A stretch of 29,929 nt of DNA from Candidatus Thorarchaeota archaeon (GTDB lineage Archaea; Asgardarchaeota; Thorarchaeia; Thorarchaeales; Thorarchaeaceae), in contig DXJO01000029.1 of the NCBI GenBank assembly GCA_019057475.1, positions 1 to 29,929 on the forward strand, in the 5' to 3' direction. A model generated the notes under the pieces. The model was not told where the DNA came from. It searched no databases and saw only the letters and a list, made by a program, of their open reading frames with translations. This document shows, piece after piece, positions 8,956 to 24,201 of this stretch. The translations under genes were made by a program, and so were the position numbers. Numbering within the stretch: the stretch's first letter is position 1; every line of letters starts with the position of its first letter.

Positions 8956-9059
8956 TGGACCGGGCGAGATTCGAACTCGCGACCTCCCGGACATTCGGCC
9001 TGCTGAACAAGCCAGCAGGCTTGCGAACCGAACGATCTACCAGGCTGATCTACCGGCCC
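8956..9059 (-). tRNA. tRNA-Ala(CGC) with a 30-nt intron at 37/38 (intron 8992-9021)
   Basis: Reverse complement folds as a cloverleaf: acceptor GGGCCGG/CCGGTCC with G3:U70, anticodon CGC, T-arm GCGAG-TTCGAAT-CTCGC. BHB helix ttcg/cgaa, intron hairpin gcctgctg/cagcaggc. Confidence 0.95.
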
Positions 9060-10885: not shown

Positions 10886-13507
10886 TCACTCATTATCCGA
10901 CTTCTTTTCAGCCTCGACAAATGCTTCCACTTTGAAAAGACGATCCTTGAGGTCTCTATTCTCTTTCTCGAGTTCCTCGATGCTCTTCCGAAGTGAGTCA
11001 ATCTCTTTCGGCTCCTTCTTCTTGCTCAGGGCTCTCACAGCTAAACGTGCGCGACGGATAACGCCTGCGCTAACCTCACTCTCAGCCAGTTTCTGCAGCG
11101 CCGGTATCAATGCAGCATCCTCAAGCGTTTTTGCGGCGATGATTGCATAGACCTGCACGCGGAAGGACCCGTCATTCAACATCTTCTCGATGTCTGACCT
11201 AATCTCCGGATGCTTCTTCTTGTATCTCTTTCCAAGCTTTGCCAGATGCCCTGGGACAACTCTTCTGAGCTCATCTGGAGTCCCTAAGACCATGTATTCT
11301 CTAAGCACAGCAATGGCCTCTTCCTTCTCGGTTGCAGCTAAGCCCGCTAGGTAACCCTGTTGCACTAGGTGGTGCCAACTAGAGGGCGCAATCTTGAGAC
11401 CTGCCCGGAGAGTCTTGAACGCACCATCGTGCTTTGACTTACCAACAGACGTCGCGGCTGCCGCAGCCACGAAGTAGCTCTCCTTGTCCTTCATGAGTTT
11501 CTTGAGTGCTTTGAAAGCTCTATCATTCTTGTAGAATTCGCCAAGGGCCCTAGCAACACCTGTACGAGCTCTAGTGCTCCTCACATTCACACCCTTGAGC
11601 AGCTGATCCAGAGATGACTCATTCTTCACGGAACCAAGCACCTTGGCTACTTCCAGTTGGACGCCCCAGAACGAGTCTTCAGTAAGCGCCTTTCCCAGCG
11701 CCTCTAATGCCTTGGGGGTTGCTTTCTTTCCAAGCGCTTGAGCCGCCTTAATTCTCTGAACAATGTTGGTTCCAGTGCTGAGTTGCTCTATCCACATGGG
11801 CTCGGGTTTGTCAATCTTCCAGTCCATTAGTGTGGCATAGTCCGGGTCGATGATTATCTGTTTGGGCTTCTTTGAAACAGGATAGTAGAAACTATGCACA
11901 CGTTCTGTCACTTCCATGATGTAGCGTGTCCGATTATCATCTTCATCAACGAACTCCACTGTCAGAGGGAACTTGAAGATCTCTGGTGTCATATCGTCAT
12001 CATATTTCTGGGTTTGCTCAATCTTCACAAGGGCATGACCCAGCTTCTCATCGTATGAGCATTTAATCTTGCACTCTGGATACCCCGCCTTGTACAGCCA
12101 CTGCTCAAAGAACCAGCCAAAATCCTCGCCAGTCATCTCAGTGAATAAACTCTCGAGGTCATGAGTATAGACCGATTTGTAGGCGTAGCGCGTCTGCCAC
12201 TCGCCAAGTATCTTCCACCATCGTTCTTCGCCAACAAGGTGCTTCAACATGTAGTACCTCCAAGCACCACCAGGATACAGATGCCTATCGAAAACATCCA
12301 TCCCCCTCTCCCATTCATTCTGCACGATTGGGCGTCTGTAGTTCTGCTTGTCCTCAGTGAAGTACGCTTTTTGCTTGCCATACTGTTCGTAGAAATACTC
12401 GTCGTCACCCTTGTCGTGACGTTTCCATTCGTTCTGCATCTGAGTTGCCCAGCCCTCGTTTAGCCAACCATGACTCCATGTCCTACAGGTCACATTATCG
12501 CCACCCCAAGAGTGAGCCAGCTCGTGGGACACCAGTCCATCCGAATCGAAATCAAGATGGGCTTTTTCATCGTGGAATGTGGCATCGGTCTGGATTGTAG
12601 CGCTCACATTCTCCATTCCGCCCGCAATGAAATTCGCAGCTGTGACCTGTGCATACTTATCCCATGGAAAGGGTACACCAAGCTTCTCAACAAAGAACTT
12701 CGTCATCTCGGGCGTCTTGCCATACGAACGATATATCGTCTCTTTATCCCACTTTGTATGCGCATAATAGCTGATTTCCAATCCATCGAGGTCTTCCTTG
12801 TACTCTACAGCCTTGCTCACCCACACCATCATGAGATAGGCAGGCATAGGTTTCTCATTGTACCAGTGGAATGTTTCCATGCCATCCGCGCTCACCTTGC
12901 GTTCCTTGAGGACGCCATTGCTCATTGCGTAGAAACCCTTGGGGACTGTAAGAATAATCTCAACCGAGTGTTTGTGGCTTGGATTGTCGTAACAGGGGAC
13001 TGTGTATCGCGCGTAGTCATCTTGCAACTGCGTCCAGGCGCTGACTTCCACGTCTGGGAACTCGGGACTTGGACCAGTGAACCACAGGCCTGCTCTTGGA
13101 TTATCTATGGTGTAGATGAACGTGAGTTCCTCCCTCTTGCGTTCCTTGAGTGGCTTCCCGAGATAGACAATCATGGCCTCCTCGTCAGGTAGGAGATCAT
13201 ACTCCAGCTCATTACCTTTCGAGTCCCTCACACCTGTGATGTTCAACTCAGCAGCATGGAGAAACACCTTGCTCAGCTCGGGTGCGATTGACTTGATCTT
13301 CAGCTTGGATATTGCGTCAACTCGCTTCCCTTTGAGGTCCATCTTCCAATCGATTGTCAGATGCTCGATGTCATAATGTCGCGCCGGAGCCCACTGAGGT
13401 CGGGCGGTTGGGAAAGTGAATTCCTCCCTGTCCGCAGACAGCAACTGCTCTGCTTCGTGAATGCCTCCTCGCATTAGAGTTTCCAGATAATCATGAAAAT
13501 CAGTCAT
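10886..13507 (-). CDS. M1 family aminopeptidase with C-terminal HEAT repeats and coiled coil
   Basis: GGMEN exopeptidase motif, HELAH-x18-E (WLNEG) zinc motif, HEAT-like helical repeats. Confidence 0.92.
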   Translation of the reverse strand: MTDFHDYLETLMRGGIHEAEQLLSADREEFTFPTARPQWAPARHYDIEHLTIDWKMDLKGKRVDAISKLKIKSIAPELSKVFLHAAELNITGVRDSKGNELEYDLLPDEEAMIVYLGKPLKERKREELTFIYTIDNPRAGLWFTGPSPEFPDVEVSAWTQLQDDYARYTVPCYDNPSHKHSVEIILTVPKGFYAMSNGVLKERKVSADGMETFHWYNEKPMPAYLMMVWVSKAVEYKEDLDGLEISYYAHTKWDKETIYRSYGKTPEMTKFFVEKLGVPFPWDKYAQVTAANFIAGGMENVSATIQTDATFHDEKAHLDFDSDGLVSHELAHSWGGDNVTCRTWSHGWLNEGWATQMQNEWKRHDKGDDEYFYEQYGKQKAYFTEDKQNYRRPIVQNEWERGMDVFDRHLYPGGAWRYYMLKHLVGEERWWKILGEWQTRYAYKSVYTHDLESLFTEMTGEDFGWFFEQWLYKAGYPECKIKCSYDEKLGHALVKIEQTQKYDDDMTPEIFKFPLTVEFVDEDDNRTRYIMEVTERVHSFYYPVSKKPKQIIIDPDYATLMDWKIDKPEPMWIEQLSTGTNIVQRIKAAQALGKKATPKALEALGKALTEDSFWGVQLEVAKVLGSVKNESSLDQLLKGVNVRSTRARTGVARALGEFYKNDRAFKALKKLMKDKESYFVAAAAATSVGKSKHDGAFKTLRAGLKIAPSSWHHLVQQGYLAGLAATEKEEAIAVLREYMVLGTPDELRRVVPGHLAKLGKRYKKKHPEIRSDIEKMLNDGSFRVQVYAIIAAKTLEDAALIPALQKLAESEVSAGVIRRARLAVRALSKKKEPKEIDSLRKSIEELEKENRDLKDRLFKVEAFVEAEKKSDNE

Positions 13508-13999: not shown

Positions 14000-15531
<1,532 letters not shown>

Positions 15532-15747: not shown

Positions 15748-18700
15748 TCACATTGCGCGCAGTATTCTTCTTCTGAGTCGTCGAGCTCCTGACAGGGCCT
15801 TCTTGTACGACTCGACCTTCCATCTACTGATGAATTCCTGATAGATCTCGATGCACTCCTCAATGTTGTCGAGTGACTCTCTCAGGCTTTTCCTCTTCAG
15901 ACGTAATGCAGCTAACTCATACAGAGCCTCAGCGACCTCAATAGAGGAGAACTCCTCGACAGCCTCTTCCCTCCTGAACTCAAGAATTGCTTCGAGCACT
16001 TCCTCCTCCGTATCTTCTCCCTCTACCTCTGTTTCCAGAAGTGTGATGTAGATGTCCCTGAGAATCTCCCTGCTTCTCGCGAGTAGCTCATCGTAGCCAT
16101 GGATTCTGTCACACGGTTCCTCCTCGTCATCGAAATAGTTCTGCACAATTTCTTGGATATTCTTCTCCATGAAATCTAGGCCATCTTGAACATCCACCCC
16201 TGGTTCCAATGTGACAGCAAGCCAAGAACAAACTTCATCTCCTGTCTGGTCCGACAAAGCAGTCAACTTGACCCCAGTCCCATCCCTGCACACAGAACAG
16301 GTAAGCTTCTCTTCCCTCATCTCGAGGTATGCCCCGGGTCTTGCCCTCTTCAGGCTCAGCTTGCGAGAAATGGGTCCACTCTCTCTAAAGACGACCCCAT
16401 CTCGAGTCTCTGGATCTGGACTGGCCTCAACATCAAACTCGTAGCGGGCAGTTTCCAGGAACACCCCTCCAGACATCAAGCCGACCACTTCATTGTCCGC
16501 CAGCGCCCCCTGGCTAAGTTCCAGAAGAAGGGAGTCATCAAGGTCAACTGGAAACTCTACCCGCCAACAGACACCATGCATTTCTGCGATGCCCTGTGCG
16601 ATAGGACACAGGCTCTCATCGTGTCTAATTATCATCGTTTCATATTCGACTTCTCGACTGGTCAGTTCTTTGGCTGTGAGAGGCAGCGGCAAACGTACAT
16701 TAATGAACGGGGTTCTCCGTTCGACGTAAGGTCTTAGAAGCTGCAGTTCTCCGTAGTCGATGTCCTTGTATGGATTCCACATGTAGTACTCTCTAGACTT
16801 CTTTGAACTTTGAAGGCTGACTCCATCCACCATCGGGCGTCTAAGGAGCTCGAGCAAGTCCGAGGTCCGAAAGATACTCCTTTGGTCGCAGGGTTCGTCA
16901 CCACCGGACTTGTCATAGAGATTCACTACGTACTTGCCCGAGTCTGTACTCAACTTACACTCAATGGAATCAACCTTCGAAAGCATCTTCGATATTGATC
17001 TGAGTTCCTTTTTCACTCTTGTTCGCAGACTGGGCTGTATAGTCAAGCCCTTGGGTTCTTCAGGTGTATTATCCGGTGAAACTGCATGTATTCCCAAACC
17101 TCTGATGGCAGTGATTGCACCCCTCTTGCGTCGTATCAGTGTCATCCTACCCAAGAGCTGCCACTTGCCAGCATCATAGGCCCAAAGGTACTCTGCGCCT
17201 GCGAAACTACTTACAGCTAGACTGTAGGACTCATTCGAATTCACACATATCGACGCACCCTTTGCTATAAGATCGTGTTGAGTGGTCGACCATCTAATCG
17301 TGTTTCTCAGTTCTAAGGGTCCTCGGCCAATCCAAAGCCCGTTCAGCATATTCCGTTTGTCATAGGAGTCCTCAATGGCTACCCAAGAGTACTGATTGTC
17401 ATCATCGTCTGAATGATAGAGAATCTGTCCAAAGACAACATTGGTGCATGACTCCCTAGGAACCTTCGCAAGGAACTCTGCTCTCTTTGAGAGGTTTGCC
17501 CAGATAGCCCTGACATCAAACTTCACACTTCTAGCTTGGGTCATCCTTGTCTGGTCTGGAGTGGTCCCCAGCTGCATCAGTTGCCATGGTTTCAGTACCT
17601 CCCATAGATGACGCAAATGTTCTTGGCTCAGGGATGGAAATCTTGTTCTGATTGCTGTCAAAAGGAGGAACAGATAGTTGCCATGGAACAATGCAAGGTG
17701 GGGTCTTGTTTCCATGAGAATATCTAAGGTCTGCTTGACTTCTCCTCTAAGACCTGAGGTCAAGCGACTCTCGCGAGTCCACTCAAGGGTATTCCAGAGT
17801 GATACGGACAGGGAATCGGTCTTCAGACAGTGTGCCACTTCATTGAGCATGTCAAGACTGATGGCATCTGTTTGCTTGGACACTATCTCTTGAAGATCAG
17901 AAAGCAGGTGTTCTTCCTCTTTGTTGTCAACCCCCTTATGCCCACTCCTTTTGTGCGCTGATAGGAACCTAATTGTTTGTCGGAGTCGACGAATTTCTAC
18001 TCTCTGAGCCCTCTTCTCGTTGGGATTGCCTAGTACTAGGACCCCCTCATTCGGTGGCCGGTGGGTCTGAGCAACAATCTCTCTCTCCAACCTATCTTCC
18101 CTATACTGTCTAGGGTGTGTGATTTTCTGAGTCGGCATTATTTCGCTGCTAGTGACAAATCCCTTCCCATGAGTGCCTGCATTTACTCGCGCGCGATATG
18201 ACATTCGTGACATGATTCCAGAGTGCTGAGCAGCTTTCTCCGGTAGCGGGGTGATCTCCAATAATGAGTCAGAGTCTGGTTTCATTTCCGCCTCTTTTTC
18301 AAATAAGGAAGGGTATAGAGCGCGCAGCCACGGGATTAGGTCAAGTGAGTCCCGGATGAGCTCAGCTCGAAAAGCAGCCCTTTGAGGACTGCTGATGACA
18401 TCACAAGCTAGGAGTGGACGTCGTCCTCGACCAGTCCTCTTCCTTCTTCGTGTAGCCTTTGCTTTTTCTCTCTTGCTCCAGAATCTCGAGGACCAGTCTT
18501 GAAGCGGGGGGACCTCGATGAGATTCCACTCGATATCTGTCTTTGAGTGTCTGATTATCACACGGACATTATCCAGTAAGGGAGTAGTTCGTCCATGAAT
18601 TGATGGTCTGACGGGGAGATTCCAGACTAAATCGGTTACATGATATCTGTGTGGTGAGTCCTCCCAGAAAGGCACTACACCCCTTCTCTGATAGATTGCC

Positions 18701-20829
18701 GAGGATAGATTCGAGGGTTTTGGCCTGACAAACCAAACAGTGGTACAACCGAGAGCATTCAACTCTCCAACAAATACACGTTCCAATTCCAGCAGTGCAG
18801 CCTTGAGCCTTTGAGGCGTTTCATTCTCCAATTCACCCCAGCCAGTCACTACAACTATCATGTCACTCGGCTTTTCCGATTCAGGTGATGTCAAGGAATC
18901 GATGTCCGGGATTTCTCCTCCTTTGAAGAGATAGTCATAAATGCTTGAAGACATGTCCTTGATTTCTATGGAGTTGAAGAACGTCCGAATGTGTTTCTGC
19001 TGGCTCTTGATTCTCAGCCTTGTTTCCGCTAATGGCTTGAAATGGAAGTTGCCTGCTAGATCCAACCAGACAACCTTGGACTTGTCCTCGGATTGCTTCA
19101 GGTCATAGAGGAATTGTAGTGCATGCCAATACTCTGCCGTCCATGCTGCAGTGGGCCCTGATCTCGAGGCACTTCTTACACTGAGATAGAGGATATGCCG
19201 TCTGTCCTTGGAGGTTGACCAAACGAAGGGATTGAAAGAAACACGTCGCTTAACCGGCACACCAGTCGTCCCGATTGCCATTAATTTCGTTTTCTCACAA
19301 CCGCACAGCAATATGGCCACTCTCTTTGCAGCTGGGTTCTTGCTCCTGATTGACATGCGCCGTGCCAGTCGTGTCTGATTCTGCCTTATGCTATCCCGAC
19401 ATATGTGTCGCACAAGCAACAGTAGCTGACTCTGTGCGATTCTGGCGTCCTGCTGCGTATCGACAAGTACAATTCCTCGTAGGATATCCACTGACTCCTG
19501 GTCCCCGGTCGCTTTCCTATACTCGTTTGCAATGCCTGCAGAATAGGCACCAAGTTGCTGGACATCGGTCTTAGTGGGTACTTCGGTTATTGCTTCTTCC
19601 CACTCCATATCGGTGAGTCCGCGCATTCGGGTTTCGAGCTTGGGGACCATCTTCTCACGTTTCTTCTCGGTTCCGTCAGCTCGTCGTTGCCCTCTCGGCC
19701 GCTTGGTCCGGACTTCCCAATGAAACGCTGTTCGTGTCTTGATATCGAAGACTGCGATTGGTTGCCATATCGTAAGTTTACCTGGATGTCTTGGATTCTG
19801 TATTATCCGACGCTTGAAGACGATAAGATCCGCTCGACCCTTGCCCATGGGTGTTTCCAAAGGAACTTCAGCAGCTATCAGAAGTTCTTCGCCGGAATCA
19901 GCTAAACGGTCACCATCCAGAATGACTGACCTCAACGTGAATGGCTGAGGAAGTCCATTGGCAAGTAGACTATGCCATCTAATGCCTGCCCATCTTGCTT
20001 TTCTAATCACTTCTCTTCTGAGTCGCTCCGCATCTTTATCCCGAAGCTTGGGCTTTTTGCCTTCAAGAAGCCTATCAAGAAGGGTTATCCAATCTTGTCG
20101 ATACTCCTGTTCGATATCAGCCAAGTCTTGACTAGAATGCTGGAGCTTGTGGATTTGGTCGACGAAGAATTGCCTACAGGCCTCGGGATTAGGCTCAGGG
20201 ATTCTGCTGGTTGGTGCAACTGCACGACCAGTTCTCTTGCCGTATAGAGCCTCAATCTCCTGCACCAAAGCCCTGAGTATCTGGTCAGCATCAGGACCCT
20301 GCTGTCTTTTCTTCGCCTTCTTGTTCCTAGCTCGTTTGAAACCCCTTCTACCGGATTGACCTGATGTATAGACATACTCGACAAAGGGGATGAGTTGCCT
20401 AATCAGAAATGACACGTAGCTACGCGCATCGCCGATGGGAACATTGTGAATGAATGCTTTGCGGCAGTATTCCCGGAGGTGTGATCTGATCATGTCTGCG
20501 AAGTCCAACTCTGGCAGGTCGGGGCCGTGAGCGACCGGAACGCTCCCATACATGGATCCCCCGTCATACCCCCTGATTGTTGTTCGTCCTTTGTTGCCTA
20601 TCACTATCGGTTCGGGGAATGGAAACAGTCGAAGGAAATAATCGCGAAGCTGTGCACCTGCCATGTTGAACAGTGCATTTAGAGGACCAACCACTCCTTC
20701 TTTCTCATTCTTGACTCGTTTTCGTTCAGTGTTTCCATAGCGTGCAGTTGTCATCCATGCATTCTTGAGTTCGGCGCTACGTAGATGCTTTTCCTGACCT
20801 GTGACGACTGAGAAGTCTGGTTTCTCCAA
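15748..20829 (-). CDS. very large protein with a RecB/Cas4-like PD-(D/E)XK nuclease domain, possible degenerate RecA-like NTPase fold and C-terminal TPR-like helices; frame stays open upstream to about 21003
   Basis: E321...RAD334...D362-I-K364...Q425-x3-Y429. Then LYLSVRSASRSGPT / VVWLD / IVVVTGW, and C-terminal EVAEALYELAAL...IEECIEIY. Confidence 0.75.
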   Translation of the reverse strand: MEKPDFSVVTGQEKHLRSAELKNAWMTTARYGNTERKRVKNEKEGVVGPLNALFNMAGAQLRDYFLRLFPFPEPIVIGNKGRTTIRGYDGGSMYGSVPVAHGPDLPELDFADMIRSHLREYCRKAFIHNVPIGDARSYVSFLIRQLIPFVEYVYTSGQSGRRGFKRARNKKAKKRQQGPDADQILRALVQEIEALYGKRTGRAVAPTSRIPEPNPEACRQFFVDQIHKLQHSSQDLADIEQEYRQDWITLLDRLLEGKKPKLRDKDAERLRREVIRKARWAGIRWHSLLANGLPQPFTLRSVILDGDRLADSGEELLIAAEVPLETPMGKGRADLIVFKRRIIQNPRHPGKLTIWQPIAVFDIKTRTAFHWEVRTKRPRGQRRADGTEKKREKMVPKLETRMRGLTDMEWEEAITEVPTKTDVQQLGAYSAGIANEYRKATGDQESVDILRGIVLVDTQQDARIAQSQLLLLVRHICRDSIRQNQTRLARRMSIRSKNPAAKRVAILLCGCEKTKLMAIGTTGVPVKRRVSFNPFVWSTSKDRRHILYLSVRSASRSGPTAAWTAEYWHALQFLYDLKQSEDKSKVVWLDLAGNFHFKPLAETRLRIKSQQKHIRTFFNSIEIKDMSSSIYDYLFKGGEIPDIDSLTSPESEKPSDMIVVVTGWGELENETPQRLKAALLELERVFVGELNALGCTTVWFVRPKPSNLSSAIYQRRGVVPFWEDSPHRYHVTDLVWNLPVRPSIHGRTTPLLDNVRVIIRHSKTDIEWNLIEVPPLQDWSSRFWSKREKAKATRRRKRTGRGRRPLLACDVISSPQRAAFRAELIRDSLDLIPWLRALYPSLFEKEAEMKPDSDSLLEITPLPEKAAQHSGIMSRMSYRARVNAGTHGKGFVTSSEIMPTQKITHPRQYREDRLEREIVAQTHRPPNEGVLVLGNPNEKRAQRVEIRRLRQTIRFLSAHKRSGHKGVDNKEEEHLLSDLQEIVSKQTDAISLDMLNEVAHCLKTDSLSVSLWNTLEWTRESRLTSGLRGEVKQTLDILMETRPHLALFHGNYLFLLLTAIRTRFPSLSQEHLRHLWEVLKPWQLMQLGTTPDQTRMTQARSVKFDVRAIWANLSKRAEFLAKVPRESCTNVVFGQILYHSDDDDNQYSWVAIEDSYDKRNMLNGLWIGRGPLELRNTIRWSTTQHDLIAKGASICVNSNESYSLAVSSFAGAEYLWAYDAGKWQLLGRMTLIRRKRGAITAIRGLGIHAVSPDNTPEEPKGLTIQPSLRTRVKKELRSISKMLSKVDSIECKLSTDSGKYVVNLYDKSGGDEPCDQRSIFRTSDLLELLRRPMVDGVSLQSSKKSREYYMWNPYKDIDYGELQLLRPYVERRTPFINVRLPLPLTAKELTSREVEYETMIIRHDESLCPIAQGIAEMHGVCWRVEFPVDLDDSLLLELSQGALADNEVVGLMSGGVFLETARYEFDVEASPDPETRDGVVFRESGPISRKLSLKRARPGAYLEMREEKLTCSVCRDGTGVKLTALSDQTGDEVCSWLAVTLEPGVDVQDGLDFMEKNIQEIVQNYFDDEEEPCDRIHGYDELLARSREILRDIYITLLETEVEGEDTEEEVLEAILEFRREEAVEEFSSIEVAEALYELAALRLKRKSLRESLDNIEECIEIYQEFISRWKVESYKKALSGARRLRRRILRAM

Positions 20830-21162: not shown

Positions 21163-21194
21163 TCATTCATTCTTCGTAATGAAAGAGTGAGTGA
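21163..21194 (+). other. hairpin at the putative left end of the tnpB unit
   Basis: tcattcattctt/aagagtgagtga 12-bp stem with G-U pairs, starting right after GGAGAATA. TTTATATA at about 21125-21132. Confidence 0.55.
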
Positions 21195-22933
21195 AACTCC
21201 CTTGGCCTGAAGCAGGTCGGGAATTTATATGTCCGAGGAGAAAATTCGTGGGTCGCTCTAGTGGCGTAATGATAACCGCAAAGGTCCCTGTCAGATGGGA
21301 TGTGTTGACTGCTAGGCAGAAGACACGCCTGTCTAGGATTACAAGCAGAGACACGCGAGTCATCAAGGCCTATCTTGGAGTGATTGAAAAGCATGAGAAG
21401 AATCTGCTCGTCGGAAAGAGAAAGAAGCGACTAAATGCTGGTACAATTGACGAACTGACTCTGAGAACCAAGAACCGGTCATCAGTGCCGCACGACTTCA
21501 AACGACGATTCAGCAACATCTCTGTCAACGAACTGCAAGAATGTCGAGACACAGCTATGGCCATGTGGCAGGTGTACCTTGCCCTAGGTAGAGGAAAGCC
21601 ACTAAGAGCCAAGGGCTACTGTTCTCGGAAGCTGCCTCGACATGTGTTCAAGCAGAGGTTCAAATTCCTCTATACTCCTAACAAGTCTATCAAGCATTGG
21701 CTAGTTATTCGTGACTCCCTAGACTCAGTAAGAGAGGGACGGGTCAGACACGACAAGCTGTCGATACCTTTGAATCCGTCCTCGTATCATCTGAACCGAT
21801 TGAAGTCGGGTGAGATCAAGTCTATACAGATTGTCAAGGACCACAGCAAGAAATGGTGGGTCTTGTTCAAGGTGAAGCTGAAACCTGAGCCCGTCGACAC
21901 GACCTCGAAGCCACCTGCGGTAATCGGAATTGACCTCGGCATCAAGAAGGCGGTATGTTCTGTCGTTCTTACACAGAAGGGTATGAAACACATCCAATTC
22001 TGGACCCAGAAGGATAAGGCTCGGCAGATTGAGCAATACGACCAGATGATTGCCAGTCTACAATCCAAGAAAGAGGATCTCCTGAAGCAGGGATGTTCAG
22101 CTGATGATGTCACTCAACGACTTCGACAATTGAGTTCGAAACGAGAGAACATCAGCTTCGACTATGACAGAAAACTAGTCAAACTGCTGAGCGAACACGT
22201 TCTGGAGTTATCTGACAAGTATGATGTCCATGTTGCTATTGGCCGACTCAAAGGAATTCGCAATCGGGCTAGAAGGGGAAACTACAGGGGTCCTAAGTTC
22301 CGCGGAATGATTCACAGATGGGCATTCGCTAGAATTACAGACTCGTTGAAACACAAGCTTAGCATGAATGGTTTCAGTCCCAAAAGAGTATTTGCAGTAC
22401 CTGAGGCTTGGACTAGCATCAAGTGCCATAAGTGTGGACACAAGGGCATCCGCCCCAAGCAGAGCTTCTTTCTCTGTCACACTTGCGGCTATCGTGACAA
22501 CGCCGACAAGAATGCCGCCATCAACATAGGAAGGCGGCTCATCATGCTCATTCCTTCACTGAAGGATGAGAAAGGACTAGGGATGTGGCTCCTCTCTCAC
22601 GAGAAAGCCGCCCCGAAGACCCGGAGGAGCAAACGCTCTAAACGGATGTCCTCACTCCCCAAGAGGTTGCCAATCTCGTCTGAGGGGAAGTCCGTGGCTG
22701 ACTGCATTCAGACATCTCTCGGGATGTTCAGCAGTACCGACCCCGCCATGGCAACAACCATGGAAACACCGTCTGCCGCTATGGATTCTGGCCCCCATAG
22801 CACAACAAGGCAGCGGACAGAGACTATGTCTGGGATGAGGAACTCTGTTCCAATGATGCCCAGCGAAACTCTTGCACAGCCAGCAGAAGAGGTTCTGTTG
22901 GTTGCTGGTGACAGCAGTCATGAGGAGGGCTGA
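21191..22933 (+). CDS. tnpB: TnpB/Cas12f-family RNA-guided endonuclease with rearranged RuvC-II; likely start GTG 21248 or ATG 21269
   Basis: RuvC-I GID248LG, canonical Glu position is Gly (AIG351RL), alternative E405 in VPEAWTS, Zn finger CHKC/CHTC, RuvC-III NAD439KNAAINI. GAGGAG SD before 21248. Confidence 0.9.
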   Translation: MKLPWPEAGREFICPRRKFVGRSSGVMITAKVPVRWDVLTARQKTRLSRITSRDTRVIKAYLGVIEKHEKNLLVGKRKKRLNAGTIDELTLRTKNRSSVPHDFKRRFSNISVNELQECRDTAMAMWQVYLALGRGKPLRAKGYCSRKLPRHVFKQRFKFLYTPNKSIKHWLVIRDSLDSVREGRVRHDKLSIPLNPSSYHLNRLKSGEIKSIQIVKDHSKKWWVLFKVKLKPEPVDTTSKPPAVIGIDLGIKKAVCSVVLTQKGMKHIQFWTQKDKARQIEQYDQMIASLQSKKEDLLKQGCSADDVTQRLRQLSSKRENISFDYDRKLVKLLSEHVLELSDKYDVHVAIGRLKGIRNRARRGNYRGPKFRGMIHRWAFARITDSLKHKLSMNGFSPKRVFAVPEAWTSIKCHKCGHKGIRPKQSFFLCHTCGYRDNADKNAAINIGRRLIMLIPSLKDEKGLGMWLLSHEKAAPKTRRSKRSKRMSSLPKRLPISSEGKSVADCIQTSLGMFSSTDPAMATTMETPSAAMDSGPHSTTRQRTETMSGMRNSVPMMPSETLAQPAEEVLLVAGDSSHEEG

Positions 22934-23041
22934 ACATGGAAGTTGAAGGTAGAGTGGAGTTTCACTCACACTATCAGCAACGGTCGGACGTCCCTGCTTC
23001 TTGCACACACCGCCTCAGGCAGGTCAGGCCTTGTTACGACT
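22934..23041 (+). ncRNA. putative 3' end of the omega-RNA with 16S-derived guide segment(s)
   Basis: 22988-23014 is identical to the spliced 16S. 23029-23041 is complementary to 16S 15484-15496. Position matches the TnpB guide location. The 5' boundary probably lies inside tnpB. Confidence 0.65.
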
Positions 23042-23184
23042 CTACAATCTTTGAACCTGGAGGAGTTGTGCAGGTTACATATCCGGAAGGAACCAGCTGG
23101 GGACCACCTCTTCTGTTTGTATTCACGGAAACCGAAACACAAAACTAGAAACAAAAGGAACCCAATCAAGGGAGAAGACAGGAT

Positions 23185-24201
23185 ATGAATCGTAAAGAGA
23201 GAATGAACCTTATCAAAGCACTTGAAGAGAATAGAGGATCAAGAGTGTTAGTTTACATGACAGGCGATCGTCGAGGCCTGGAAACCAAGATTGCCATGGA
23301 TATCTTTCCTATGTTTCATGAACACCTCACTCAGATCGGCAAACAGGATAAAATCGACCTTGTCCTCTATAGTTCTGGAGGCTTGACAATTGCAGGGTAT
23401 GCCCTTGTAAACCTGATTCGGGAGTTCTGCGAGAATTTCAATGTTGTTATCCCATTCAAGGCTCTCAGCACAGCTACAATCATCGCTCTGGGAGCGAATG
23501 AAATACTAATGACCCCGATGGGACAGCTTAGCCCCATTGATCCATCTGTAGAACATCCATTGGGGCCTATTGTTCAAATTCCCGGTCAAGCCCGGGGTGG
23601 AATAGCTCCTGTAAATGTCGAAGATGTAAGTGCTTTCATCGACTTGGCAAGAAAGGAGATTGAGCTGAAGGAAGAGGAATCCCTGAAGAGAGTATTCGAG
23701 CTCTTGGCTGAGAAGATACATCCATTGGTCCTAGGTGCAGTTCATAGGTCACGAGAACAGATTGGTTTCTTGGCTTCAAACCTGATGAAGTACCATTGCA
23801 GTGACGAGAAACAAATAGAGAGCATAGTCAGCGTTCTAACAAGAGAACGATTCTCGCATAGCTATATCATAAGTCGTCGGGAGGCGAAGGAGAGTCTGCA
23901 CCTGAACATAGTCGAACCTGATGATAAACAGACTGGAATCATCGTTGATTTGTTCAACGCATATGAACAGATTCTACAGTTGAGTGTTCCTTATCACCCC
24001 GAAACAACATTAGGTGATCAAAAAGTTGGTTCTGCTATCTTCAACAGGGGCATCATAGAATCAGTTGATATGACACATGTATTCCGCACCAACAAAGAGA
24101 TAAGAAGAGCGGAGATAAGACAACCAGGAATCCCAGTTCCTGTATTTGGCTACCAAGAGCGTATCCTTCAGGAAGGATGGCTTGTAGACAATAACCTGTG
24201 A
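23185..24201 (+). CDS. SDH/ClpP-class serine protease-like protein
   Basis: IDLVLYSSGG, PFKALSTATIIALGANEILM...QLSPIDP, FSHSYIISRREAK. Confidence 0.85.
   Translation: MNRKERMNLIKALEENRGSRVLVYMTGDRRGLETKIAMDIFPMFHEHLTQIGKQDKIDLVLYSSGGLTIAGYALVNLIREFCENFNVVIPFKALSTATIIALGANEILMTPMGQLSPIDPSVEHPLGPIVQIPGQARGGIAPVNVEDVSAFIDLARKEIELKEEESLKRVFELLAEKIHPLVLGAVHRSREQIGFLASNLMKYHCSDEKQIESIVSVLTRERFSHSYIISRREAKESLHLNIVEPDDKQTGIIVDLFNAYEQILQLSVPYHPETTLGDQKVGSAIFNRGIIESVDMTHVFRTNKEIRRAEIRQPGIPVPVFGYQERILQEGWLVDNNL

Follow-up and report, generated by a model that had tools for sequence, protein, structure and literature searches.

TnpB, which is regarded as the ancestor of Cas12, is the RNA-guided nuclease of the OMEGA systems of IS200/IS605 and IS607 elements. 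It is a RuvC and zinc-finger protein whose omegaRNA scaffold overlaps the 3' end of the gene; the guide lies directly 3' of the scaffold and represents the flank of the insertion site, and the target is preceded by a short 5' target-adjacent motif (TAM). CRISPR arrays consist of regular direct repeats of about 23-50 nt with uniform spacers derived from foreign DNA, and are accompanied by cas1/cas2 for adaptation. Among TnpB proteins, the nearest described subgroup comprises the Asgard-linked, aCas1-associated groups, in which a conserved GTTCACTCA motif lies downstream of tnpB and the guide has been suspected upstream of that motif, its position being left open (PMC10691335). Two further systems are relevant. 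TldR proteins are domesticated, nuclease-dead TnpB repressors (PMC10705468). The LAGLIDADG homing endonucleases of archaeal rRNA introns, such as I-PogI, recognise an intron-less exon junction that the intron interrupts, and small hairpin introns, including 16S mini-introns of <50 nt, hitch-hike with them (Jay and Inskeep 2015, PMC4496867); such hairpin introns are known in the 16S genes of Thermoproteales (PMC4496867).

We analysed a stretch of 29,929 nt from a Thorarchaeota genome (the window), in which a tnpB-like gene is followed by an omegaRNA scaffold and then by segments that match the 16S rRNA gene. The genome of the window is denoted G000, the genomes of Thorarchaeota relatives carry other G numbers, and L numbers denote loci. 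With the OMEGA systems the locus shares a RuvC and zinc-finger TnpB, a scaffold of about 250 nt that overlaps the 3' end of tnpB and runs straight into the guide, and a short 5' TAM. It differs from them in that no transposase was identified in G000, where a Pfam search for Cas1 found none; in being syntenic with the 16S gene rather than mobile; and in that its guide matches a gene 7.5 kb away rather than an insertion-site flank, with up to four tandem units. The aCas1-linked groups are closer, sharing the (G)TTCACTCA motif and a Gly in place of the RuvC-II Glu together with an alternative Glu (PMC10691335). Our evidence from 16S matches and a GRAT motif places the guide downstream of GTTCACTCA, after CAGGTCGG.

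The likeness to TldR lies in an immobilised tnpB with a conserved guide to a host locus; here, however, the predicted catalytic Asp, Glu and Asp are conserved in a rearranged form, and the targets are intron insertion sites in an rRNA gene rather than promoters. As in the LAGLIDADG systems, the sequence to be recognised is an intron-less exon junction, and a classical LAGLIDADG intron occurs at another 16S site in the same Thorarchaeota family. Recognition would be RNA-guided here, with one putative nuclease serving several intron sites by means of several guides, and whereas the homing endonucleases are intron-encoded, tnpB lies 0.3-13 kb outside a 16S gene whose introns are 30 nt long. Type V CRISPR arrays and transposon-to-CRISPR intermediates resemble the locus in the pairing of a repeat with an upstream 'anti-repeat', in a different guide for each copy, and in the loss of units by what looks like deletion between repeats (G071 compared with G080). 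Unlike a CRISPR array, the locus has a repeat of only about 8 nt at irregular spacings of 40-110 nt, lacks Cas1 in G000, directs every guide at one host gene (16S), and keeps a set and order of units that are fixed rather than growing. A literature search for TnpB in connection with homing, guide arrays or introns of rRNA genes turned up no account of arrays of this kind.

A 16S-linked tnpB gene and its scaffold RNA

The two genes and the scaffold are placed in the window as follows.

14000 to 15531, + strand: 16S rRNA gene, with all four target sites inside (Rfam SSU_rRNA_archaea, 1317.8 bits)
21191 to 22933, + strand: tnpB-like gene of 580 aa with rearranged RuvC-II (Pfam Cas12f1-like_TNB, E = 1.2e-13; sequence matches to Cas12f/TnpB entries of the PDB)
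22737 to 22987, + strand: omegaRNA scaffold of about 250 nt, delimited by DNA conservation among paralogues and orthologues (5' limit approximate)

The TnpB-like protein retains conserved CxxC...CxxC and NADxN motifs. D248, E405 and D439 were invariant in 16/16 aligned members, and the canonical RuvC-II Glu was replaced by an equally invariant G351. The AF2 model puts G351 in strand 345-353 and E405 at the end of the strand that follows, 400-405. TnpB clades with a rearranged RuvC-II, having Gly at this position and an alternative Glu on the next strand, are regarded as probably active (Altae-Tran et al. 2023, PMC10691335), and from sequence and model alike we consider that the nuclease of this locus is probably active as well.

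The 16S gene and tnpB are 0.3-13 kb apart in at least 9 genomes, drawn from several genera, and this synteny marks tnpB as resident rather than jumping. Its left flank is non-16S sequence. The tightest linkage was seen in G009 (G009:C23:1-2300; L093, L127), where the array stands about 350 nt from the 16S 3' end on the opposite strand. In the window, the gap between 16S and tnpB is filled by a 1693-aa ORF without a Pfam match (15748-20829, - strand); the spacing is about 7 kb in four other genomes, which suggests that this ORF is conserved there.

When the 3' regions of the four G000 paralogues and of orthologues were aligned, conservation ran through TTCACTCAC, a short variable linker and (C)AGGTCGG, and then gave way to divergence. 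Scaffold conservation and covarying stems lie upstream of this point; right after GGTCGG the sequences either diverge or match 16S. Both the minimum free energy and the centroid fold of 22700-23045 closed the scaffold with a helix between CCGACC (22737-22742) and GGUCGG (22982-22987). This closing helix covaries across subfamilies, CCGACC:GGUCGG in some and AAGACC:GGUCUU in others: where AAGACC or AAGATC stands upstream, the end reads GGTCTT at four loci and GGTTTT at one, and the variants CCGATC and GGTTGG retain wobble pairs. The covariation implies that the 'repeat' is one strand of a guide-adjacent helix, so that the pairing of GGUCGG with CCGACC is the counterpart of a crRNA repeat pairing with its anti-repeat.

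Nothing in 22450-23200 matched a family in Rfam. In one marine-sediment metatranscriptome, contigs from a 95-96%-identical relative covered only the 16S gene and 22567-22946; the latter interval corresponds to the scaffold part, and the remainder of tnpB and the neighbouring gene were uncovered, which is a weak hint of a stable omegaRNA. An apparent joint between 15177 and 22988 in the contig alignments was set aside, as it reflects an intron-less 16S contig aligning to the guide.

Guide units behind the scaffold and their 16S targets

The segments that follow the scaffold in G000 are listed here; a slash marks a junction between repeat and guide, or between TAM and target.

22988 to 23014, + strand: intact guide of unit 1, identical over 27 nt to the site 1 junction without its intron
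23018 to 23028, + strand: GGCAGG 'anti-guide' fused to the decayed unit 2 repeat GGTCAGG; predicted hairpin, complementary to guide bases CCTGC
23029 to 23044, + strand: unit 2 guide remnant, a 13-nt 16S match followed by CTA, with the first guide base changed from A to G at 23028
23095 to 23112, + strand: unit 4 remnant, agctgg/ggaccacctctt where relatives have GTCGG/GGATCACCTCCT, identified by alignment with the G008 array

The first-pass annotation had let the first guide begin at cgtccc. Since GGTCGG ends at 22987 and the next 27 bases match uninterrupted 16S, the guide starts instead at the A at 22988, straight after the repeat. The 27-mer at 22988-23014 matches the 16S gene of the host provided that the 30 nt at 15358-15387 are left out, and not otherwise; without interruption, the 27-mer is found exactly in relatives' genomes, in actual or apparent 16S genes. 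The match of guide 1 is 17-18 nt long in other genomes, and the 27 nt of G000 may indicate that its guide was renewed, with spliced rRNA or a 16S copy lacking the intron as the source.

A second 16S match, CCTTGTTACGACT at 23029-23041, is the exact reverse complement of 16S positions 15484-15496, in agreement with the first-pass annotation, and the two 14-mers reported to precede the matches were also found in place (tcagcaacggtcgg at 22974-22987 and tcaggcaggtcagg at 23015-23028). The claimed similarity of these 14-mers was narrower than their length suggests: 8/14 positions are identical, and the common part is a core of 7-9 nt, (CA)GGTCGG, which in the second copy has the mutated form GGTCAGG. 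Because the second 14-mer overlaps the GGCAGG anti-guide, it may be a fusion of anti-guide and unit 2 repeat, in which case the likeness of the second repeat in G000 to CAGGTCGG may be less clean. The sequence GCAGGG(A), the complement of bases 3-10 of guide 1, follows unit 1 at a distance of 10-21 nt in at least 6 other genomes (L024, L025, L031, L032, L121, L122, L124); in G000 the pairing is between 23018-23023 and 22994-22998. Judged from base complementarity, such a hairpin would sequester the seed of guide 1, and it might serve as a terminator, as a processing site or for self-inhibition.

The bare 13-mer is not significant: about 1.3 exact 13-mers are expected by chance between 16S (both strands) and the other 28 kb of the window, and one further exact match does occur, at 11542. 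Its placement is more telling, as it starts 14 nt past the first 16S match (p of about 0.005 for proximity within about 50 nt). A comparison of the 3' flanks of homologous tnpB loci, as the first-pass annotation had proposed, carried the matter further. The 13-mer recurred, and the unit 2 junction GTCGG/ACCTTGTTAC was exact in 8/86 family genomes against about 0.5 expected; what the homologous loci keep of the repeat is about 8 nt, not 14. A 16-mer, CCTTGTTACGACTCTA, is common to G000 and to the arrays of G008, G097 and G046, three genomes from two other genera. Its last three bases, CTA, are not 16S sequence, so the four genomes must owe it to common descent rather than to independent matches. 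Among the archaea in a set of 185,579 genomes, one per prokaryotic species, the unit 2 junction was confined to two Thorarchaeota and two 'uncultured archaeon' contigs. An independent cold-seep metagenome contig spans 22803-23200 at 98% identity without gaps, and the arrangement is thus not an assembly artefact. On this comparative evidence, which we regard as decisive, the second 16S-like stretch is confirmed as real and not a product of chance.

In many genomes of the family the scaffold is followed by one to four units, each consisting of (A)CAGGTCGG and a segment that matches 16S over 12-27 nt; most guides match over only 12-17 nt. Each unit corresponds to one of four sites in the 3' domain of the 16S gene.

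Unit of site 3: guide start ACTAGGGATTCC, 16S minus strand
Unit of site 1: guide start ACGTCCCTGCTTCTTGC, 16S plus strand
Unit of site 2: guide start ACCTTGTTACGACT, 16S minus strand
Unit of site 4: guide start GGATCACCTCCT, 16S plus strand

The composition of the arrays varied among genomes.

G051: units 3, 1, 2, 4 (all four)
G008, G097: units 3, 2, 4
G080: units 3, 1, 4
G060: units 3, 1, 2
G071: units 3, 4
G000: units 1, 2, 4 (1 intact; 2 and 4 decayed)

The order was invariably 3-1-2-4, which is that of the sites along the 16S gene; it could stem from a single ancestral event and is uninformative on function. Exact junctions of unit 1 and of unit 4 were each present in 6/86 family genomes. 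Pattern matches with one mismatch and no scaffold context were dropped as chance, control counts being similar, and a recurrent variant, ACCTTGTTAG (four genomes), was rejected as an array unit because it sits within the body of another tnpB paralogue.

Several properties of the arrays bear on how they arose and whether they are used. The arrays of G000 and G008 remain alignable from unit 2 across a GCAGG..ATATC linker to unit 4. Across genera, the downstream junction and the first 12-14 nt are exact, whereas the linkers cannot be aligned or contain indels. The 16S pieces are not collinear with the gene: they come from alternating strands, and a GGTCGG adjoins each. In G100 and G099 the scaffold-proximal junction is degenerate and the downstream CAGGTCGG and guide are perfect, and several downstream units match 16S over 7-9 nt only (G051, G060, G007). 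In G101 a full tnpB with unit 1 precedes the 3' remnant of a truncated tnpB that carries unit 2; the arrangement points to an origin of arrays from elements in tandem that lost their bodies by deletion.

Sites 1, 2 and 4 are placed in the window as follows.

15344 to 15404, + strand: site 1; TAM GAAT at 15344-15347, protospacer split by an intron into 15348-15357 and 15388-15404
15484 to 15501, - strand: site 2; TAM GGAT at 15501-15498, protospacer ACCTTGTTACGACT at 15497-15484, intron-free in G000
15516 to 15531, + strand: site 4; TAM GGAT at 15516-15519, followed by GGATCACCTCCT at the 16S 3' end, intron-free in G000

The target regions coincide with the binding regions of the widely used 'universal' 16S primers 1390/1406 and 1492. 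GAATA at 15344-15348 and GGATA at 15501-15497 on the minus strand were found as reported, but the proposed shared TAM GRATA has to be shortened by one base. The bases before the four targets are GAGAAT, ACGGAT, GCGGAT and GCGGAT, and the transitions from motif to guide read GAAT/A, GGAT/A, GGAT/A and GGAT/G. Because the guide of site 4 begins with G, where the other three begin with A, the motif common to the four sites on both strands is GRAT, and the fifth base is the first base of the guide. A chance GRAT has a probability of 1/128 per site, and it precedes four independent sites on both strands; by its position it is the putative target-adjacent motif 5' of all four targets. We take this recurrence as strong sequence evidence for DNA targeting of the TnpB type and against an antisense role towards rRNA.

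Tandem guides, as the first-pass annotation had supposed, are thus a conserved trait of this TnpB lineage, with up to four units (G051), and the 13-nt segment is homologous to unit 2; in G000, however, the unit is decayed. Where relatives read CAGGTCGG/ACCTTG, G000 reads CAGGTCAG/GCCTTG. The two substitutions fall exactly at the junction of repeat and guide (GGTCGG/A to GGTCAG/G): one sets an A against a C of CCGACC, and the other mismatches the TAM-proximal first guide base. Site 2 is intact in the host, as had been stated, with target and GGAT uninterrupted. G000 has a single 16S copy (in 56 contigs), and an intact unit 2 would face an uninterrupted, GGAT-flanked target in the only 16S of the host, for which reason we read it as a relic. 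Rather than a second guide that may bind without cutting, the segment, which reads GGTCAG/G against the GGTCGG/A of relatives, is most likely an inactive relic on this junction evidence, and so is unit 4 of G000.

Mini-introns at the targeted sites

Archaeal bulge-helix-bulge (BHB) introns have a 4-bp helix flanked by two 3-nt bulges with the splice sites, and their removal restores the rRNA sequence. The interruption of site 1 in G000 is of this kind.

15358 to 15387, + strand: 30-nt BHB mini-intron in site 1, 10 nt from GAAT; absent from relatives' 16S

Its fold (z = -4.45) has an H helix of 5 bp, a bulge of 3 nt and a helix of 9 bp capped by a 5-nt loop. Insertions of 29-31 nt occur at all four target sites in the 16S genes of the family, and also at position 875. 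At site 2, 14 relatives carry a 30-nt BHB intron, and eleven have an intron of about 31 nt after GGA at site 4. In all 14 site 2 introns, exon 1 pairs with the intron tail in a 4-bp helix; next come a 3-nt bulge and a 9-bp inner helix that shows several compensatory changes and is capped by a 5-nt loop, and a second 3-nt bulge completes the pattern. Predicted excision at the canonical positions restores the universal AAGTCGTAACAAGG in 14/14. On sequence and predicted fold, the insertions at sites 1-4 are canonical bulge-helix-bulge introns.

The introns lie 3-10 nt past GRAT, within the seed of the matching guide. Guides would therefore read the intron-less junction, and a 16S gene that bears the intron should escape recognition. 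DNA contigs from three cold-seep studies contained a 16S 99.5% identical to that of the window and lacking the 30-nt intron, and intron presence is thus polymorphic among very close relatives. We also considered an origin of tnpB from inside a BHB intron, and rejected it: the GGUCGG at the scaffold end shows no pairing with the sequence that precedes GRAT, and a distance of 3-10 nt separates the introns from that motif.

The state of the units agrees with that of the sites in G000 at 3/3: unit 1 is intact and site 1 has its intron, and units 2 and 4 are decayed and their sites intron-free. Among genomes with an intact unit and a known 16S 3' domain, the own 16S carried the matching intron in 13/18 cases, compared with 23/86 site-genome pairs without a unit, counts that take no account of phylogenetic relatedness. 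The five intact units with an intron-free own target are unit 2 of G046 and G009, unit 4 of G018 and unit 3 of G071 and G051; that of G009 is a bare junction match without a nearby scaffold motif and likely a chance one. These exceptions match over 12-14 nt, and over 14-18 nt (18/19) in unit 4 of G018. The likely reasons are that 12-14 nt of matching do not suffice for cutting, that downstream units go unused, or that strains are mixed in the MAGs. G001, G004 and G006, of the same genus as G000, have the site 2 intron in place of the one seen in the window; in these three, where introns are present, no guide was detected.

At position 875 (about 14870 in the window), the insertion is 30 nt long in most genomes and reaches 740-900 nt in others; in G099 it is a 740-nt intron encoding a LAGLIDADG protein. 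In the family (L065, L071-L094), seven or more positions of 16S were seen to carry BHB introns. Additional odd insertions occur close to the 16S 3' end in G024, and the 16S gene of G044, a complete genome, is in pieces separated by about 200 kb. Elsewhere in the window, a tRNA gene at 8956-9059 (- strand) measures 104 nt against a 71-position model and is probably intron-containing.

Possible roles of the array, and related loci

We consider it probable, on balance, that an ancestral guide array of several units followed the omegaRNA of this 16S-linked TnpB and that the 13-mer is what decay has left of its second unit; for the system we propose a homing or addiction role. In this proposal, a GGUCGG further downstream would form the same closing helix with CCGACC and present its own guide, so that one scaffold could serve several guides. 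The TnpB complex would recognise GRAT and the guide sequence in 16S DNA that lacks the 30-nt mini-intron, and would cut it; intron-bearing copies would be immune, their introns lying in the seed at 3-10 nt from GRAT. In effect, TnpB would behave as a homing or addiction nuclease by which mini-introns without an endonuclease of their own are retained in the linked 16S. Direct observation extends to the sequences and their conservation, the common motif, the intron structures and the closing helix; from these we infer that target DNA is cleaved, that downstream units are used and that the system has a homing or addiction role. Real use of downstream units is favoured by the junctions of G100 and G099, by the exactness of downstream junctions and by the deletion-like loss of units.

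A chance match, a scrap of 16S pseudogene or an assembly chimera would each account for the 13-mer without any array. About 1.3 such 13-mers are indeed expected per window and the one at 11542 is another, yet the same junction and CTA tail recur in independent MAGs of several genera, the gap-free independent contig at 98% identity over 22803-23200 argues against a chimera, and the pieces are non-collinear with 16S, alternate in strand and each abut GGTCGG; we find these origins scarcely credible. It is also quite improbable that the segment is a working second guide in G000, directing TnpB or pairing antisense with the 1492 region and binding without cutting. Thirteen contiguous bases match, the host target and its GGAT are intact, and G046 tolerates an intact 14-nt unit 2 beside an intron-free target, which means that such pairing need not be lethal. 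Against this, both substitutions sit at the critical junction, in the closing-helix partner and in the TAM-proximal first guide base, and guides to both 16S strands, all after GRAT, fit DNA rather than rRNA targeting.

A stronger competitor, though in our judgement still an unlikely one, holds that the units are dead leftovers of tandem or nested tnpB elements stripped of their bodies, that only the scaffold-adjacent guide ever works, and that downstream units in G000 and its relatives are junk still awaiting decay. G101, with its full tnpB and truncated fragment carrying unit 2, offers a plausible route to arrays of this sort; units 2 and 4 of G000 are decayed, several downstream units (G051, G060, G007) match over 7-9 nt only, and G018 carries an intact downstream unit beside its own intron-free target. 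Leftovers would not explain, however, why the downstream junction and the first 12-14 nt stay exact across genera when the linkers do not, why G100 and G099 lost the proximal junction and kept a perfect downstream one, or why an intact unit goes with an intron in the own 16S in 13/18 cases, several of these units being downstream in their arrays.

The locus looks like a natural multi-guide TnpB locus resembling a forerunner of CRISPR arrays, and the proto-CRISPR arrangement suggested in the first-pass annotation may be apt, backed as it is by the covarying CCGACC:GGUCGG closing helix and the conserved downstream units. A fuller reading, comprising a multi-guide omegaRNA with alternative GGUCGG closings, RNA-guided homing or addiction of 16S mini-introns, and an intermediate between transposon RNA and CRISPR, is one that we advance only tentatively and would not yet bet on. 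The locus bears on the path from a single fixed guide to an array of repeat-guide units, since natural loci in which short repeats are a strand of the scaffold-closing helix, each with a different guide, make array ancestry testable. It also links an RNA-guided nuclease to archaeal rRNA intron insertion sites, a link that may explain the persistence of endonuclease-less mini-introns in the most conserved parts of 16S. Were the fuller reading true, the locus would be a living intermediate on the way from single-guide transposon RNA to CRISPR array and would give intron homing endonucleases their first RNA-guided counterpart; the nuclease, if active, would be a compact enzyme with a short GRAT motif.

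A second tnpB lineage, represented in G000 at C18:46457-48330 (L002) and elsewhere by L016, L020, L021, L022, L043 and L052, has a guide of its own that is conserved across genera, GGTCGG followed by TGCATGCA(G/T)CC(G/A)A. A search of G000 for the target of this GGTCGG/TGCATGCAGCCGA group (the C18 paralogue and six genomes), either contiguous or split by 20-900 nt after GRAT, gave chance-level matches only. Two of the tnpB paralogues of G000 contain in-frame TGA codons, two in C18:46457-48226 and one in C42:34402-36111, and may be pseudogenes or cases of recoding.
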